From a virus (Duplodnaviria > Heunggongvirae > Uroviricota > Caudoviricetes): a stretch of DNA of 13,911 bases. Below, in pieces: positions 1,659 through 11,567 of the stretch. The stretch lies in IMG/VR virus record IMGVR_UViG_2609459774_000004, one strand, 5' to 3'. Numbering within the stretch: the stretch's first letter is position 1; each line of letters starts with the position of its first letter. The translations under genes and the position numbers were made by a program. Below the pieces are notes generated by a model. It did not search any database. It worked only from the letters and a program-made list of their open reading frames with translations, and was not told where the DNA came from.

Positions 1659-4130
1659 TTAAGAATCAGCCTGACTCGGGATCAGTTTTTGCCAGATAAC
1701 TGAAACGTATTTTGCCTGGTAACGGGCGTCATCAAGTGCATTATGGCGCTCACCTTCGAATGGAATAGCCGTTCTGGCATCGAAGTCTATGGCTTTCCCC
1801 AGCTCAACGATTGTGCGTACATCGCGATCGTTGTAGTAACGCCACGGGCAGGGGATCCCCTGCCGTTCGTATGAACGGCGCAAAATCGTGTTGTCGAAGT
1901 TGGCTCCATTTCCCCAAACCTGAACAAAAAATTCACCGGAGTTTTCGTCGATAAATTCTCGCAATTGTAACAGTGCATCATCTAACGGGATTTCATCGGT
2001 CATAATGGCAGATTGCGCTTCGCGTGATTGCTTAAGCCACCATTTAATGGTGTCCCGATCAATGACTCCGCCAGCAGTTTCCAGATCGATAGTCTTACTA
2101 AATTCCGGTCCCATATCTCCGGTTTGCGGATCGAAAAATATTGCACCTATTGAGATGATCGGGGCATCAGGATTTTTTCCCATGGTTTCAAGGTCGATCA
2201 TTAGATGGTCACACGTCCTGCTGGTGGATGTGATTTCGTGATGACCGTTCACCTTAATTGGGTGATCTGCCGTCTCGCCAGTTTCATTATCGCTATTGTG
2301 ATGCTGATTGCCGCCAGTGTTCTCCTTGTGTGGATGTTCAGCGCCTTCCATTTCCTCCGGATCATCTTCCTGAACTTCAACCTGATACTCTTCATCGAAT
2401 GTTTCTTGGTATGTTGCGTCGCCCATCACCGCGCCACAATCAGGGCAGTTGCCGCCGCCGGTCTGACCGCAGGCGGTGCAGACTTTTTCCACTTCCTGTT
2501 GCGCTACTGGTTCAGGCTGTTTCGTTTCTGGCTCGTTTTGTAACGCATTTGGACTGTTTTGTTCCGCTTTTTGGTAGTTCCGTTCCGATTCATGCTGGTT
2601 CTGGTTCACAGAATCGCGGGTCTGGAGCCCCTTAACCCATTTCGGATCATTCGGGTCACTAATCCCTTCAACAAATTCACCACGTGATGCAGCAAGCAAC
2701 TTATCGGCGTCAGGCTGGCTGATATTGGCTGCCTGCATAATTTTGTTTACTTCGTCAGCGGTAACTTTTATCGGCTCTGGTTGTTCTGAATCTTCAGCGG
2801 TATCTACATTTTGCGGTAAGCCCGTGTATGTGCCATTTTTTCGGGCAAAATATTCTTCTTTTGTGATTTCAGTGGCGCCAGCAGCCAGTGCCTTATCCAG
2901 ACCAGAGAGTTTGTTTGCGCGACCGTATTTTTCTCCGTCCTTATCTGCGAAGAGGAAATAGAACGGCCCCTCACGCTCTACAGATGGTTCAGCTTCCGGC
3001 GCGGTTTCATTTTTTGGGATATCAGATACCTCAGTTTCCACTGCATCAGTTTGTGTTTCTGATGACTGGAGAACATCAACAGTGCCCAGGTCTGTTTCTT
3101 CATTCTCAAACACGCCCTTTGTCGTCAGGTATTCGCAGATATATTTGTTCAGTGCTACGGGATCTTTGTGAATGTCGATCGGACGCTCACGGACAAGGCC
3201 AAAAATAGTTTGGCGGTCGTAGCGAAGGGCATCAGGCTGTTTGCGCATTGATGCCGAGATACGCTTCCAGTCTTCGCGGTCGTTGTCGATAACTTCTTTT
3301 TTTGCCCAGCGATGGATGCTGCCGTCAATGTTTCCGGCATCCACATCACTAGGCCAGAGAGCGTAGGCCAGTTCGTCATCCAGTGTTTTCCATGTCTGCT
3401 TGTATTCGCGATGAATGGCAGCAATGACCGGGCTGATTTTTCCTGTTGAATTTTCAGTGTACTGTTGATTGGCTCTGGCGCGGGCGAGATCAACAACAGA
3501 CGTGTATTTTCCGGTTTCCTTGCGTTCACCTTCGCGACGTTTTTTCCAGATGCGCATCTCTGCCTGAATTTCGGGCCATTTAGCACCAGGAATACATTTA
3601 TGCTTAACCCACCCAATGGCGTGCAACTTAAGCTCCGGATACATGGCGTTAACTTCTGGCATTTTCATCAACGCTTCAACGATATGTCCGTCGAATGTTG
3701 CCATGTCTTCCTGCAACAATTCCTGTGCGCTAATAACCATATCAACGGTGATGTTTTCACATGTGTCGAACTTAACCATGACAGCGTTCTGTACTTCAGG
3801 GGCCAGCTTGTCAAAAGTGACGTTCATCGGATCGGATTCAGTCTCAACCGGGACAAAAGAAGCAGACTCCTCATCCCAGCGGTTTTCCTGCATATATTCA
3901 GCATCCCATGAATCGAGGGCAGGGCGGGGTATGCCAGGTTTATCCTCGCAGACAATAAATTTATAAGCGCAGTCCTGAGCAGCCGGATAATGTTCCAGGA
4001 ATTGCCAGTGAAATTTTGCTCGAGCACGGCGTTCGTCGCCAGCTTCAATGGCTGTGGCTACAGCCACAGCGCCTTCTTCCCTTGTTGCCAGTTCGTCAGG
4101 AATAGCGGCGCAAATAAAGACTTTACTCAT
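1659..4130 (-). CDS. Exonuclease VIII-like protein with C-terminal DEDDh (DnaQ-like) 3'-5' exonuclease domain; 823 aa from the ATG at 4130 (frame open to TTG at 4166)
   Basis: Track ORF 1659..4166. The ATG at 4128-4130 (MSKVF) has a GAGG Shine-Dalgarno 9 nt upstream. The C-terminus shows three DEDDh motifs (LMIDLETMG; VWGNGANFDNTIL; HNALDDARYQAKY). The centre has a CxxC-x10-CxxC ribbon (CTACGQTGGGNCPDCG) flanked by acidic and His-rich low-complexity linkers. By position this corresponds to the gene that K-12 Qin retains only as the IS2-truncated ydfE remnant. Confidence 0.8.
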   Translation of the reverse strand: MSKVFICAAIPDELATREEGAVAVATAIEAGDERRARAKFHWQFLEHYPAAQDCAYKFIVCEDKPGIPRPALDSWDAEYMQENRWDEESASFVPVETESDPMNVTFDKLAPEVQNAVMVKFDTCENITVDMVISAQELLQEDMATFDGHIVEALMKMPEVNAMYPELKLHAIGWVKHKCIPGAKWPEIQAEMRIWKKRREGERKETGKYTSVVDLARARANQQYTENSTGKISPVIAAIHREYKQTWKTLDDELAYALWPSDVDAGNIDGSIHRWAKKEVIDNDREDWKRISASMRKQPDALRYDRQTIFGLVRERPIDIHKDPVALNKYICEYLTTKGVFENEETDLGTVDVLQSSETQTDAVETEVSDIPKNETAPEAEPSVEREGPFYFLFADKDGEKYGRANKLSGLDKALAAGATEITKEEYFARKNGTYTGLPQNVDTAEDSEQPEPIKVTADEVNKIMQAANISQPDADKLLAASRGEFVEGISDPNDPKWVKGLQTRDSVNQNQHESERNYQKAEQNSPNALQNEPETKQPEPVAQQEVEKVCTACGQTGGGNCPDCGAVMGDATYQETFDEEYQVEVQEDDPEEMEGAEHPHKENTGGNQHHNSDNETGETADHPIKVNGHHEITSTSRTCDHLMIDLETMGKNPDAPIISIGAIFFDPQTGDMGPEFSKTIDLETAGGVIDRDTIKWWLKQSREAQSAIMTDEIPLDDALLQLREFIDENSGEFFVQVWGNGANFDNTILRRSYERQGIPCPWRYYNDRDVRTIVELGKAIDFDARTAIPFEGERHNALDDARYQAKYVSVIWQKLIPSQADS

Positions 4131-4222
4131 TTGTTTTAACCTCATGACAGATTTAAGGATGAACAAATCCCTGCCATTGCTGGCATATAAGAATGAAACC
4201 GGATATTTATTACGGAACTGTT

Positions 4223-4414
4223 TTAAAGACCTGCCGGGATTTCGATATTATCCTGGTGAATAACTTTATCGACCGGGTAACAGTTACCGGGAATTTTCTG
4301 TTCGGTTGCTGCAGTCATACACTCCTGCATTGTCCTGTGAACACTGACTGCAATATCAACTGGCTCTCCGGAAACAAGAAAAACTGTCAGAACAAGCACA
4401 AATGCTGAATTCAT
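4223..4414 (-). CDS. ydfD: YdfD-like small lysis protein with N-terminal hydrophobic (transmembrane/signal-like) segment, 63 aa
   Basis: Internal Met of track ORF 4223..4468 (MNSAFVLVLTVFLVSG...). Its ATG overlaps the dicB stop as ATGA, implying translational coupling. Length (63 aa), N-terminal hydrophobic helix and position directly downstream of dicB match Qin ydfD. Confidence 0.65.
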   Translation of the reverse strand: MNSAFVLVLTVFLVSGEPVDIAVSVHRTMQECMTAATEQKIPGNCYPVDKVIHQDNIEIPAGL

Positions 4415-4599
4415 TGTGCACATCCTTTTGGCATCAGACGTAAACGAGCCAGCATTGAAACAATGCATATTTTATTTAATAGCTCCCGTTCTTGTTTTCT
4501 CTTGTTAATGGCATCTTCAGTAAATACTGGGTTACTGATAGTGACACCAATTTCAAAACAACCTTCAGACGTATTAACGTTTGGTAATAACGTTTTCAT
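4411..4599 (-). CDS. dicB: DicB cell-division inhibitor (MinC-dependent), 62 aa
   Basis: Internal Met of track ORF 4411..4704: MKTLLPNVNTSEGCFEIGVTISNPVFTEDAINKRKQERELLNKICIVSMLARLRLMPKGCAQ. GAGGA Shine-Dalgarno 7 nt upstream. Length, sequence and position downstream of the DicF sequence fit DicB of the Qin dicB operon. Confidence 0.8.
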   Translation of the reverse strand: MKTLLPNVNTSEGCFEIGVTISNPVFTEDAINKRKQERELLNKICIVSMLARLRLMPKGCAQ

Positions 4600-4768
4600 T
4601 ATCGCGTCCTCAACAATGAATTTTGTGATGCAGTGCCTGGTGCCTCCAGGTGATGTTAACCAGTTAACAATTAACGCCGGATACAGAGAATCCACCCATA
4701 ACACTGTTTTTGGTTTTAACTGTTCCGCGTGCGCTCAGCCGCATTCACCACATCACAAAATTCACTTT

Positions 4769-4826
4769 AAAAAGGGCGGCAGAGCAGTCACGGAGTAAAA
4801 CTGATACCGCCAAACGTCACCAGAAA
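4769..4826 (-). ncRNA. dicF: DicF small regulatory RNA (53-nt body 4774..4826 plus U-tail)
   Basis: Minus-strand sequence UUUCUGGUGACGUUUGGCGGUAUCAGUUUUACUCCGUGACUGCUCUGCCGCCC followed by UUUUU matches DicF as I recall it, including a GC-rich 3' hairpin and U-tract. Located between ydfC and dicB as in Qin. Confidence 0.75.
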
Positions 4827-5166
4827 ATTGATAACAGAGGGCGTTGCAGCGGGGTTGTCACTTAAGCGTATGGTCAACCTGACAACCCGGTGTCCTCAAC
4901 GGGGAAGGAATACCCCCGCCATACTTACCGCCGCGCCATTTCGCGGGTTGCCACAACCGGAAGCGCACGGTCGACGAAAATTTAACGACAGGCTATCTAT
5001 GAACCAGCTACCTCGCCGTGCGCTTTCGCGTTATGGTCTGACTTTTCAGGGAAATATCCTTTCAGTAAACTGTCAGTTCCGGATGCGCACCCGTGTCCGG
5101 CGCACGCACTCCACCTCACCCGTGGAGAACTCCTTAATTACTAACCTTAGCTTTGTTGATTAGCTA

Positions 5167-5385
5167 CTAACGCGGGTATGTAATCATTCTGGCAATGCTT
5201 AATGCCGCTGCTTTTTCCAGATTGGTGATATCCTGCTCCAGAGCGGACAGATTTTCAGCCTGCTTAGCCCTGGCTTCATTAGCCCATTTCAGATCCTGCG
5301 CTGCATTAATTTTCTGGCGCATCCACTCATAAAGTTCATCATCGGTATAGTCTGGCGCGATGATGACGGGTTCTCGTTTCTGCAT
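5167..5385 (-). CDS. ydfC: YdfC-like small protein, 72 aa
   Basis: Track ORF with AGGA Shine-Dalgarno 6 nt upstream of the ATG. Length and position (third gene of the leftward operon after ydfA/ydfB) match Qin ydfC. Function unknown. Confidence 0.6.
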   Translation of the reverse strand: MQKREPVIIAPDYTDDELYEWMRQKINAAQDLKWANEARAKQAENLSALEQDITNLEKAAALSIARMITYPR

Positions 5386-5414
5386 ACTGATTCCTCGCGG
5401 TGCTGTTTCGCTTA

Positions 5415-5868: not shown

Positions 5869-6276
5869 TTATTTTATTGATTTATTTTTACGCGCTTTAA
5901 GCATTTCTTCGAAGAGTTTGTTGAAGTTTTCTACTCTTGCGCGCATTTCAGACAGCAAGGCTTCCTGCTCGGAAGATGGAAGAGCATCGAATAATTCGAT
6001 CAATTCTTTGTGGTTGGGAGTTAGCTCTGTTTCCACATGAAGTTCTTGTGCAGGCACTGGTGCCTTGTCTTCGTCACCAAACATTAGCCATGTAGGTGAG
6101 CACTTCAGAGCATCCGCTAAAGCAAACAATCGTTTTCCGACTGGCTGGGTTTCGTCTCTTTCCCATTGTGAAATTGTGACGTGAGCAACTCCAGCGAGGC
6201 GCGCAGCTTCTCGTTGTGTTAAGCGTAATTCTTTTCGTCGCGCCAGAACTCGCTGGCCTAGGGTTCTTGTATCCAT
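5869..6276 (-). CDS. dicA: DicA-type HTH (XRE family) prophage repressor, 135 aa, no S24 peptidase domain
   Basis: N-terminal HTH (LRLTQREAARLAGVAHVTISQWE). Divergent from a Cro-like gene across a 77-bp operator region. The 135-aa length matches DicA. C-terminal half is a short helical tail with no LexA-like Ser/Lys cleavage module. Confidence 0.85.
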   Translation of the reverse strand: MDTRTLGQRVLARRKELRLTQREAARLAGVAHVTISQWERDETQPVGKRLFALADALKCSPTWLMFGDEDKAPVPAQELHVETELTPNHKELIELFDALPSSEQEALLSEMRARVENFNKLFEEMLKARKNKSIK

Positions 6277-7967: not shown

Positions 7968-8267
7968 AAAAATTCCTTAATACTGATAACTTGGCGCACT
8001 ATACACACGTTCCTGAAGAAAGCTATAGTTTTTTGATGGGGTTGAAGATGGCTGGATGTCTAAAATAAACATTGCTTCATATGTTCAACTATGCGTTAAT
8101 GATTGCGTCGGTTTGAAGAACAGACGATATACGAAGTAGTTTACTAAAGCAGTTCTCATTTCAGGTGTTATTCACTTATTCCTTCTTTGAGTCTCTCCAA
8201 TTAAGTACGAAGTCGTTTCTGTTATGCAAACCATTTATGCCGAAAGGCTCAAGTTAAGGAATGTAGA
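7968..8267. promoter_or_regulatory. Divergent promoter and long 5'-UTR region between the cspF-like and cspB-like genes
   Basis: 300-bp AT-rich intergenic region between divergent cold-shock genes; cspA-family genes typically have long 5' leaders. No specific element mapped. Confidence 0.35.
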
Positions 8268-8483
8268 ATGTCAAATAAAATGACTGGTTTAGTAAAATGG
8301 TTTAACGCTGATAAAGGTTTCGGCTTTATTTCTCCTGTTGATGGTAGTAAAGATGTGTTTGTGCATTTTTCTGCGATTCAGAATGATAATTATCGAACCT
8401 TATTTGAAGGTCAAAAGGTTACCTTCTCTATAGAGAGTGGTGCTAAAGGTCCTGCAGCAGCAAATGTCATCATTACTGATTAA
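8268..8483 (+). CDS. cspB: Cold-shock protein CspB-like, 71 aa
   Basis: [67 protein letters not shown]... carries the RNP1/RNP2 motifs of the CspA family and the CspB-type variable residues. AAGGAA Shine-Dalgarno upstream. Confidence 0.9.
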
Positions 8484-8764
8484 AATTCATCGCTCGTCTG
8501 TATACGATAACGAAGAAGGCTGATGCCTGAGTAGAGATACGGACAGAGTAGTGAATATTGGATCTCTTTAATAAAAAGTAAGGAGGTCCAATACATGAAA
8601 CAATGGCTAGCATATTTGGCAAAATCTTAATCAGGAAAAGTATGCTAACCATTGTGGTGAAGTGCAGGTTTGCTGCATGAATAGTTTTACAGCAGAAGCT
8701 AACTGCTGGCATGGCAAAACAAAGTGCGTAAGTGGATGACTCCCACAAAAAGCACCACAATCTC

Positions 8765-10792: not shown

Positions 10793-11155
10793 GGTAATAT
10801 TAAATCGGAACATTTACATCGCGGAATGTAAAATTTAAATAAAAAGGACTCTTCCATGAGCCAAAATTCCTGAAATCTTAAGGGTAAGATAAAAGGTCTT
10901 AATCAGAATGACACGTTTTATTAATAAATAAAGCTATTCTTTCATTGCTGTGTTTTTCTTTACAAAAGTAATCCTTGCTATGGGTGGTTAATCATGAGTT
11001 AATGGTGTTCTGGTTTGTTACAAATTTATCTGAAGCAGTCATTGTTATAATTTTATTATTTGTACCTCTTGAGATTTCCTTGTTGGTTTTTCTCTCTGAT
11101 ATTTTTTTTTCGGACCATTCTGCCCAAGGGCTAATTTCTTCAAAAGGTAATAATT

Positions 11156-11368
11156 ATGTCTAACAAAATGACTGGTTTAGTGAAATGGTTTAACCCTGAA
11201 AAAGGTTTTGGTTTCATCACGCCGAAAGATGGCAGCAAAGATGTGTTTGTCCATTTCTCAGCAATTCAGAGCAACGATTTCAAAACATTAACTGAGAATC
11301 AGGAAGTTGAATTTGGTATTGAGAACGGACCTAAAGGTCCTGCCGCTGTTCATGTAGTGGCGCTTTGA
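11156..11368 (+). CDS. cspI: Cold-shock protein CspI, 70 aa
   Basis: [70 protein letters not shown] matches CspI of Qin as I recall it. Long AT-rich 5' leader upstream. Confidence 0.9.
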
Positions 11369-11567
11369 GGTAGACAATATTACAAACCATATTCACTTTA
11401 GATGCCCGTGTTGTCATGGTTCCCAGTATAGAACATCATCTTTTGATGTTTCTGACATGAATCCTTTCGGGGCAAAATGTATCTTTTGTAAATCAATGAT
11501 GATTACATTTGATAATATTTCACAATACTTAAATGTTAGCCATCTGTCGTTAGATTTAAGAAAGTGA
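11358..11567 (+). other. Candidate second small zinc-ribbon ORF (paralog of the 8847..9017 protein) with no canonical start upstream of its Cys motifs
   Basis: Hand-translated frame: ...HFRCPCCHGSQYRTSSFDVSDMNPFGAKCIFCKSMMITFDNISQYLNVSHLSLDLRK*. Cys spacing (C-x-CC ... C-x2-C, with SF in the linker) parallels the 56-aa protein. The only ATG is at 11457, after the first Cys cluster. The stop is 8 nt before the terminator hairpin. May be a degenerate paralog or use a non-canonical start. Confidence 0.25.

Follow-up and report, generated by a model that had tools for sequence, protein, structure and literature searches.

DicF was among the first bacterial small RNAs (sRNAs) to be described, and the operon that carries it is still under study. 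In Escherichia coli K-12, DicF species of 53 nt and 190 nt have been reported by Ragunathan et al. 2023, after Faubladier et al. 1990 (PMC10448788). The 5′ end of the 190-nt form is RNase III-dependent and was mapped by primer extension; inactivation of RNase E causes this form to accumulate and the 53-nt form to disappear, and the 190-nt species also accumulates in stationary phase (PMC10448788). Transcripts of the K-12 operon include a terminated RNA of 1,146 nt and a read-through RNA of 1,608 nt (PMC10448788), and the end of DicF itself is attributed in the literature to Rho-independent termination. In the literature searched, the RNA upstream of DicF is treated only as a processing intermediate. 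Here we examine that RNA in the ydfC–dicF spacer (positions 4826–5166, minus strand, 341 nt) of a Caudoviricetes sequence, IMG/VR record IMGVR_UViG_2609459774_000004, whose full 13,911 nt are hereafter called the window. The promoter-distal 119 nt of the spacer are a discrete, conserved, pseudoknotted RNA domain without an Rfam family, which we call the module. It is more widely conserved than DicF and is common to phage P1, and the question thereby moves from the trimming of DicF to the role of the domain.

Several described systems bear comparison with this locus. The putL and putR RNAs of phage HK022 are factor-independent antiterminators of ~70 nt, built of two stem-loops and a triplex, that bind the zinc-binding domain of the RNA polymerase beta-prime subunit. 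The EAR of Bacillus subtilis is reportedly a processive antiterminator RNA found within operons, ~120 nt long and pseudoknotted, that acts on distal terminators. Terminator-coupled riboswitch leaders place promoter, structured domain and terminator in the same order as found here, and their terminated product is a small RNA. In the P1 record NC_005856 a misc_feature named ‘dicF-like region’ (68791–68892) overlaps the 3′ half of the P1 module and its terminator; the accompanying note records similarity to the dicF locus only, whereas the similarity lies mainly in the module upstream of DicF. No description of the module as a conserved pseudoknotted domain was found in the literature searched, including a full-text search for sequence strings, although the papers on put-like RNA (King et al. 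2011) and on the P1 genome lay outside that coverage and a prior description is possible there. What appears to be new is the coupling of a conserved, pseudoknotted 119-nt RNA domain to a terminator; its processing is partly known.

The spacer is that of E. coli K-12, and constitutes the leader of the DicF precursor. A 398-nt query comprising spacer and DicF aligned over its full length with MG1655 at 99.5% identity, exactly across the ydfC–dicB interval and between the same flanking genes; the closest genome match was ATCC 8739 (99.7%). The query was matched in 4326 of 5426 complete E. coli genomes, or about 80%, at up to eight places per genome, and the majority of copies were >95% identical. 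The earlier note on this DNA, made from the letters alone, had taken base-for-base agreement with the K-12 spacer, together with a lack of conserved structure beyond DicF, as the outcome that would count against an additional RNA element. Agreement with K-12 is indeed what we found, but structure beyond DicF is present as well, because the module is at least as conserved as DicF and is common to P1/P7, cdtI-type and Salmonella phages. The suggestion of an additional processed RNA was thus right in substance, although part of it was already known as the 190-nt DicF species (PMC10448788; Faubladier 1990).

The module spans positions 4840–4958 on the minus strand (~119 nt), where our covariance model R1 scores 141 bits (E about 1e-34), and the window holds one copy. 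Unique copies were collected in an alignment of 74 sequences (A1); R1 was built from 22 representatives, and 76 copies were re-aligned to it (A3). An outer stem (4950–4957 with 4843–4850) closes the domain. The remaining elements are a possible small hairpin of invariant sequence (4942–4946 with 4931–4935), a 4-bp helix P_x (CGGU/ACCG; 4927–4930 with 4888–4891), hairpin A (4900–4918), hairpin B (4880–4887 with 4853–4860), and a pseudoknot, GUAUGG/CCAUAC, that joins 4919–4924 to the loop of hairpin B (4868–4873). In 75 distinct sequences, 95.4% of paired cells were compatible with pairing, against 33–55% with slid partners; both sides had changed in 10 pairs, and the covariation score was unmatched in 500 shuffles. 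The pseudoknot and P_x lie outside the model, and were 99.3–99.7% paired (99.5% for the two helices together) compared with 20–50% when slid.

Individual helices show how pairing has been kept. The outer stem reads GUUGUGGC/GCUGCAAC in Qin types and GUUGUGGU/ACCACAAC in cdtI types, three positions differing with pairing intact; it is missing in P1 types and in two deletion variants, and is therefore dispensable. In P_x a U-A pair is replaced by C-G throughout the P7 clade and, in a single sequence, by U.G, and one U-A pair of hairpin B is C-G in every P1/P7-type copy. The variable pseudoknot pair is U-A in 68 sequences, U.G in four and C-G in three, and is never broken. Hairpin A occurs with at least seven different stems, all of them paired (CGGGG/CCCCG, CUGGG/CCCAG, CUGGGGC/GCUCCAG, CAGGUG/CACCUG, CAGGGG/CUCCUG, CGAGG/CCUCG and GGGGU/ACCCC). 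While its stem changes freely, its loop (4914–4904, minus strand) is pyrimidine-rich and contains UCCU or CUCC in all homologues; no conserved partner for this loop was found. The UCCU/CUCC motif resembles an anti-Shine-Dalgarno sequence. That G.U pairs occur only on the minus (sense) strand argues for a constraint at the level of RNA rather than DNA.

Conservation, expressed per 20-nt bin over 88 unique Qin-type loci, was 0.91–0.99 in the module and 0.91–0.94 in DicF, the value at 4859–4880 being inflated because the search pattern fixed these positions. Of the 4227 Rfam 15 models run over 4600–5400, none matched within 4826–5166 even at E ≤ 10, leaving only DicF and a weak STnc100-like match downstream; likewise, the module copies of P1, cdtI, pPE4 and F1055 gave no Rfam match at E ≤ 0.1. 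Minimum-free-energy folding of the 398-nt stretch gave −147.4 kcal/mol (z = −2.57), more stable than 99 of 100 shuffles, with one as stable, and by itself recovered the outer stem, hairpins A and B and most of P_x. Taken by part, z-scores were −1.49 for the module, −1.92 for the RNase III stem-loop described below, −2.24 for the 5′ part and −4.02 for DicF. Thermodynamics alone is therefore weak for the individual parts, and the case rests on conservation and covariation, from which we consider it very probable that the module is a conserved functional RNA domain.

Beyond Qin-type prophages, only nucleotides 210–332 of the spacer (about 4957–4835) recur, as judged by BLAST of the spacer without DicF against phage genomes. 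The module is found at 77–100% identity in unrelated contexts: 88–90% in cdtI, Ayreon, 2H10 and Stx2c-type phages, 85% in pPE4, 83% in P7, 81% in Salmonella phage F1055 and 78% in P1. Plasmids of Escherichia, Salmonella, Klebsiella and Shigella carried P1-type copies in 510 records. Scanning viral contigs added at least 120 further loci, and a second scan contributed a few loop variants; a scan of genome contigs with a 14-base pattern returned chance matches, of which only that in E. albertii was genuine. The phage vB_Apl-pPE4 is recorded as an Actinobacillus phage, and its module region is 85% identical to E. coli prophage sequence.

Flanking sequences are unrelated between phage types, but the arrangement is constant: the cassette always lies on the sense strand of a repressor-controlled early operon, upstream of the remaining operon genes. 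Qin types have the order repressor, small ORFs (open reading frames), module, DicF, dicB, ydfD, exonuclease, xis and int. In cdtI the module lies about 350 nt past cI, after a PL-like site (identified by eye) and before the genes from yfdP through xis; in pPE4 both a dicA-like repressor and a promoter-like site precede it. The P1 and P7 copies begin about 25–40 nt past the predicted start of the C1-controlled promoter Pban, and the P1 copy is followed by a terminator, tRNAs, tciABC and ban. In 56 of 56 unique downstream sequences, a strong hairpin with a U-run stands within about 15–45 nt 3′ of the module. These hairpins are very diverse, comprising DicF itself, several DicF-like variants with other loops, and unrelated stems: that of P1 has a 7-bp GC stem, a UUCG loop and six U's (GCCCAUC-UUCG-GGUGGGC-U6), and that of F1055 is a long GUCGGCGUC...GACGCCGAC hairpin. 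Downstream of the module, RF00039 gave no match at E ≤ 0.1 in five loci (P1, cdtI, pPE4, F1055 and the plasmid locus L249). Given this diversity and the lack of a DicF match at those loci, what stays constant in the cassette is the module, and what varies is the sRNA or terminator. Module and hairpin/U-run terminator or sRNA thus travel between phages as a cassette. One E. coli match carried DicF without the module and was set aside as a deletion remnant.

Two of these loci have further features downstream of the module. In pPE4 (L004 2600–2770) a single module is followed by two tandem DicF-like sRNA/terminator copies, each with a following AAAGUGAAUUUUGUGAU. Past the terminator, cdtI-type (L003 2170–2290) and F1055-type (L006 2700–2800) loci have a second hairpin of ~17 bp, ACAAAACAGAGAAGAGCA...UGUUCUUCUCUGUUUUGU, in which the differences between the two phages seem, on inspection by eye, to be compensatory. 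This hairpin may serve as a further RNase III site or as a terminator.

The published processing of DicF can be placed on this map. The 190-nt precursor of K-12 is the same DNA, with its RNase III-made 5′ end and its conversion by RNase E to 53-nt DicF (PMC10448788); the difference from the published account is that its 5′ part is here found to be common to P1 and to phages without a recognisable DicF. When counted back from the 3′ end of DicF (4774 to 4769), 190 nt ends at 4963 to 4958, inside the 3′ arm of a 13-bp stem and adjoining the first base of the module, and the sequence in Fig. S1 of PMC10448788 begins in the loop of that stem. By this count, which combines the literature with coordinate arithmetic, the 190-nt RNA would consist of the module, a linker of 14–17 nt and DicF, with the module as its 5′ two-thirds, and by position its first ~137 nt would be module plus linker. 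With RNase III then cutting at the 5′ edge of the module and RNase E on its 3′ side, the two would together excise it. In P1, coordinates predict about 180 nt for an RNA that starts at Pban and ends at the terminator.

As for its function, we tentatively propose that the module acts in cis to allow RNA polymerase through the DicF-type terminator, which we regard as possible while short of an even chance. The module would fold on the nascent transcript and act in cis on the polymerase or on the adjacent downstream terminator, so that a fraction of polymerases would pass into dicB or kil, the exonuclease gene, xis and int (in P1, the tRNAs, tciABC and ban), while those that terminate would yield the sRNA. 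The module would thereby do with an unrelated fold what put does in HK022 and EAR in the eps operon of Bacillus. A strong intrinsic terminator precedes the downstream genes. Among the annotated carriers examined, an N gene is missing from the annotation between repressor and cassette in Tritos, HannyBb and the O157 and O111 prophages, and from that of the whole cdtI genome, and no conserved element other than the module is positioned to affect this terminator. Its own stem closes the module, a variable linker connects it with the terminator, and it thus behaves as an independent domain rather than half of a switch; together with the unrelated terminators, this argues against an alternative-pairing switch and for action on polymerase or a host factor. 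Antitermination in cis is favoured because such action is what put and EAR do, and the 1,608-nt read-through transcript of K-12 (PMC10448788) is consistent with it. Past DicF, the window showed no additional intrinsic terminator, so that processive action is not required and the effect need only be local; the simple terminator scan also missed the DicF hairpin.

Like put, the module is an early-leader cis RNA of N-less lambdoid phage, just past PL and upstream of a U-rich pause or terminator, and is a conserved folded RNA with invariant unpaired bases. It differs in size and architecture (~119 nt, with five helices and a pseudoknot). For comparison we extracted putL and putR from the genome of HK022, and we rejected the module as a put homologue, given the failure of R1 to match in HK022, the different architecture and the lack of a PR-side copy; the strings GCGCGGCGG and ACCAUGCG, which put and module have in common, were treated as chance in view of the same null result. 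The likeness to EAR is that of a ~120-nt pseudoknotted RNA between operon genes, as is the Qin module; the differences are a host of another phylum, and an only obvious terminator that is adjacent here and distal for EAR. Three other candidates were also discarded. The RfaH ops element is recognised as GGCGGTAGnnTG in the non-template strand, with an invariant T at position 6. The resembling string of the module, GGCGGTAAGTATG (cf. GGCGGTA), has a 1-nt insertion, and the P7 clade changes the T to C together with its RNA partner, A to G. A boxA-like UGCUCUC stands just upstream of the module in cdtI and F1055 types, but Qin, P1 and pPE4 types do not have it. AAGNAT would fit the sigma-70 pause element NANNAT, but such an element cannot work far from a promoter, past ydfABC in Qin, and the pseudoknot explains the same invariance.

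Several observations weigh against antitermination or limit the case for it. Wild-type K-12 gave the terminated 1,146-nt RNA, and the read-through form built up only when RNase E was inactivated (PMC10448788). In Qin-type prophages ydfABC separate the module from its distant promoter, and RNase III cleavage detaches it from the RNA upstream. No second terminator seen in the window calls for processive action, and leakiness of the terminator alone could explain downstream expression. No kinship with a described antiterminator emerged: R1 run with filters off against the HK022 PL/putL region gave no match, the cdtI genome and the window held no second, PR-side copy according to R1 (BLAST likewise placed the module once per phage record), and the lack of any Rfam match in the module means that it is not EAR. 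The absence of N was judged by annotation only, and the pseudoknot and P_x have one covarying position each in a closely related set of sequences.

Should antitermination nevertheless be correct, it would explain how N-less Qin/Rac-type and e14/cdtI-type phages, and P1 in its ban operon, pass a strong early terminator. Control of read-through would likewise account for early expression of division inhibitors, recombination and excision functions, and the P1 helicase, in the many temperate phages without an annotated N-type antiterminator. A bolder and somewhat less likely suggestion is that the module represents a third, structurally unrelated class of factor-independent antiterminator RNA, mobile with its own terminator or sRNA; if so, a new RNA class would join a very short list.

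Other explanations give the same domain a different role. It could be the pro-domain of an sRNA precursor, with no effect on transcription, that keeps the 190-nt species stable, shields folding of the sRNA from upstream mRNA and places RNase E so as to release a 5′-monophosphate sRNA with a free seed. The 190-nt species does behave as a precursor would, accumulating in stationary phase and rising without RNase E as the 53-nt form vanishes (PMC10448788). One edge of the module is cut by RNase III and the other by RNase E, pairing of the linker with the DicF 5′ seed means that processing would activate DicF, and all downstream elements resemble Hfq-type sRNAs, their terminator hairpin being preceded by a U-rich tract. 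However, a protective cap needs no invariant unpaired nucleotides or pseudoknot kept from lambdoid phages to P1 while the sRNA, in the loci searched, diverges past Rfam recognition; moreover, no RNase III stem is obvious in P1-type and cdtI-type copies, and it is missing from variants L016 and L061. We think this role unlikely. The precise excision by two RNases would also suit a free trans-acting RNA, in which the excised module, or the ~180-nt primary transcript of P1, would bind a conserved host macromolecule as a sponge, decoy or enzyme inhibitor early after induction. Single-stranded stretches kept across phages that share only their host suggest a host partner, as may the retention of UCCU/CUCC in the hairpin A loop while its stem changes, and in P1, cdtI- and pPE4-type phages the module is transcribed first from early promoters, with a terminator right after it that would make it abundant. 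Yet no ~137-nt species has been reported, albeit with published probes that target DicF, no partner is known, and the strict linkage to a terminator is left unexplained, so that we regard this idea, too, with considerable doubt.

A riboswitch-like attenuator, in which an aptamer for a metabolite or host factor would decide between termination and read-through at the DicF-type hairpin, would fit the classic order of promoter, structured domain, intrinsic terminator and genes, as well as the compact pseudoknotted fold with its invariant unpaired bases. We nonetheless judge it very unlikely: Rfam has no matching riboswitch class, the range of hosts is narrow (phages of Enterobacteriaceae), and the self-closed module, the linker varied in length and sequence and the differing terminator stems offer no apparent conserved, mutually exclusive pairing, as assessed by eye. 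The G-rich, C-poor transcript, the modest folding z-scores and the >95% identity of most copies would suit an ordinary leader structure, a folded RNA that keeps Rho and RNases off the ~570-nt untranslated ydfC–dicB gap and owes its conservation to the recent spread of one prophage segment. Such a leader would hardly keep the same 100–120 nt at 77–90% identity in P1/P7 and cdtI-type contexts with unrelated flanks, nor show compensatory changes in five helices with turnover of length and sequence confined to the hairpin A loop, and this explanation is highly improbable. Finally, a degenerate gene, the other possibility raised by the earlier note, is almost certainly not what lies here. The note was correct that the sense strand has no ORF of 60 amino acids or more in the spacer, the longest between 4826 and 5166 being of 36 and 40 amino acids. 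The 36-amino-acid ORF (4858–4968, minus strand) matches phrog_8854, of unknown function (E = 1.6e-11), and several phage records annotate hypothetical proteins over module DNA; a TTG-start ORF of 111 amino acids lies on the plus strand (4828–5163), without a Pfam or PHROG match. However, the phrog_8854 match covers only residues 1–25, the annotated ORFs vary from record to record and may be on either strand, and neither the 111-amino-acid ORF nor the two short sense ORFs match Pfam. Frame-breaking indels are common: hairpin A often occurs with CCCC or CCCCC (modules of 119 and 120 nt), and also in +4-nt forms, and these variants put the 36-amino-acid ORF out of frame. Substitutions preserve RNA pairs, including the G.U pairs confined to the sense strand. 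The phrog_8854 family and the scattered ‘hypothetical protein’ calls are probably mis-annotations of the RNA element.

The rest of the spacer is less constrained, although all four inverted repeats listed in the earlier note are present: 4852–4860 with 4880–4888 (9 nt, 100%), which falls at hairpin B; 4958–4970 with 5016–5028 (13 nt, 92%); and two in the 5′ third. The second of these forms a long stem-loop (4958–5031, minus strand) that is also found in the fold, a candidate RNase III substrate and the likely site of the published RNase III cut; its arms are conserved at 0.89–0.96 and its loop at 0.67. Its 5′ arm (CGCGAAAGCGCACGGCGAGGUAGCUGG) resembles the 5′ end of the module (CGCGAAAUGGCGCGGCGGUAAGUAUGG; 5005–5031 versus 4919–4945, minus strand). 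In L016 and L061 a deletion between two CGCGAAA repeats has removed this stem together with one strand of the outer stem, so that both stems are dispensable; the repeats and the likeness of arm and module suggest a partial duplication. The 5′ third (5036–5166) is mosaic and weakly conserved (0.54–0.86 per 20-nt bin), with three local hairpins on the minus strand, CUCCAC/GUGGAG (5109–5127, arms 5109–5114/5122–5127), CCGGA/UCCGG (5078–5099) and CUGAC/GUCAG (about 5037–5073), for which no evidence was found of anything beyond ordinary leader structure. The first 60–70 nt past ydfC are mosaic, and matches in E. coli genomes begin at various query positions (21, 43, 61 and 121), which shows that the 5′ boundary is mosaic too. 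From about 5100 downward, the leader (GUGCGCCGGACACGG onward) lies in other prophages directly 3′ of a putative divergent gene start, as judged by eye; there its stems are kept and its loops vary, with no convincing covariation found. GC content is 0.545–0.555 at 4800–5099 and 0.36–0.49 in the flanks, a real but modest rise, and to call those flanks an AT-rich operon was an overstatement; plus-strand GC skew of −0.06 to −0.17 at 4800–5300 reflects the G-rich, C-poor transcript.

Downstream of the module, the U/A-rich linker (4826–4839, minus strand) contains the RNase E site that produces the 5′ end of 53-nt DicF. Its sequence varies by cassette type, and in the fold it can pair with the DicF 5′ seed (GUUAUCA with UGGUGAC). 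DicF, as the earlier note had claimed, is present: RF00039 matches 4774–4825 on the minus strand at 76.7 bits (gathering score 48) over model positions 1–52, the full model, which places its 5′ end at 4825, one base from the 4826 originally given. With the intrinsic terminator hairpin and U-run, the sRNA occupies 4769–4825. The model spans DicF only and matched nothing in 4826–5166, and the covariance scan proposed in the note thus recovered DicF and no other family in the spacer. Beyond it, the 5′ untranslated region (UTR) of dicB folds into a long STnc100-like stem (4622–4762, minus strand; RF02076, 29.8 bits, below the gathering score of 47), which is also found ahead of kil in pPE4 (L004 2758–2942, 39.1 bits) and of tciA in P1 (L002 3842–3961, 33.4 bits). 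Prophage genes for cell-division inhibitors appear to have this conserved long-stem 5′ UTR in common, and by position it should hold the RNase III site that yields the 72-nt DicF.

The minus strand of the window is the early-left operon of a Qin-type prophage. It runs from dicA (5869–6276) through ydfA/B to ydfC (5167–5385), an ORF of 72 amino acids that is the last gene ahead of the spacer and corresponds in position to the annotated ydfC of MG1655. After DicF come dicB (about 4411–4599), ydfD and an intact exonuclease ORF of 835 amino acids (1659–4166), and past this are ORFs where related prophages carry xis and int. In K-12 the annotation of the exonuclease gene gives an incomplete copy, with an IS2 transposase fragment behind it; since the copy here is intact, the window derives from a Qin-type prophage less decayed than that of K-12. 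ARAGORN found no tRNA or tmRNA genes in the window. Elsewhere on the plus strand, two full-length matches to the cspA thermoregulator (RF01766), at 8107–8499 (158.8 bits) and 11009–11395 (111.9 bits), probably mark prophage cold-shock protein genes.

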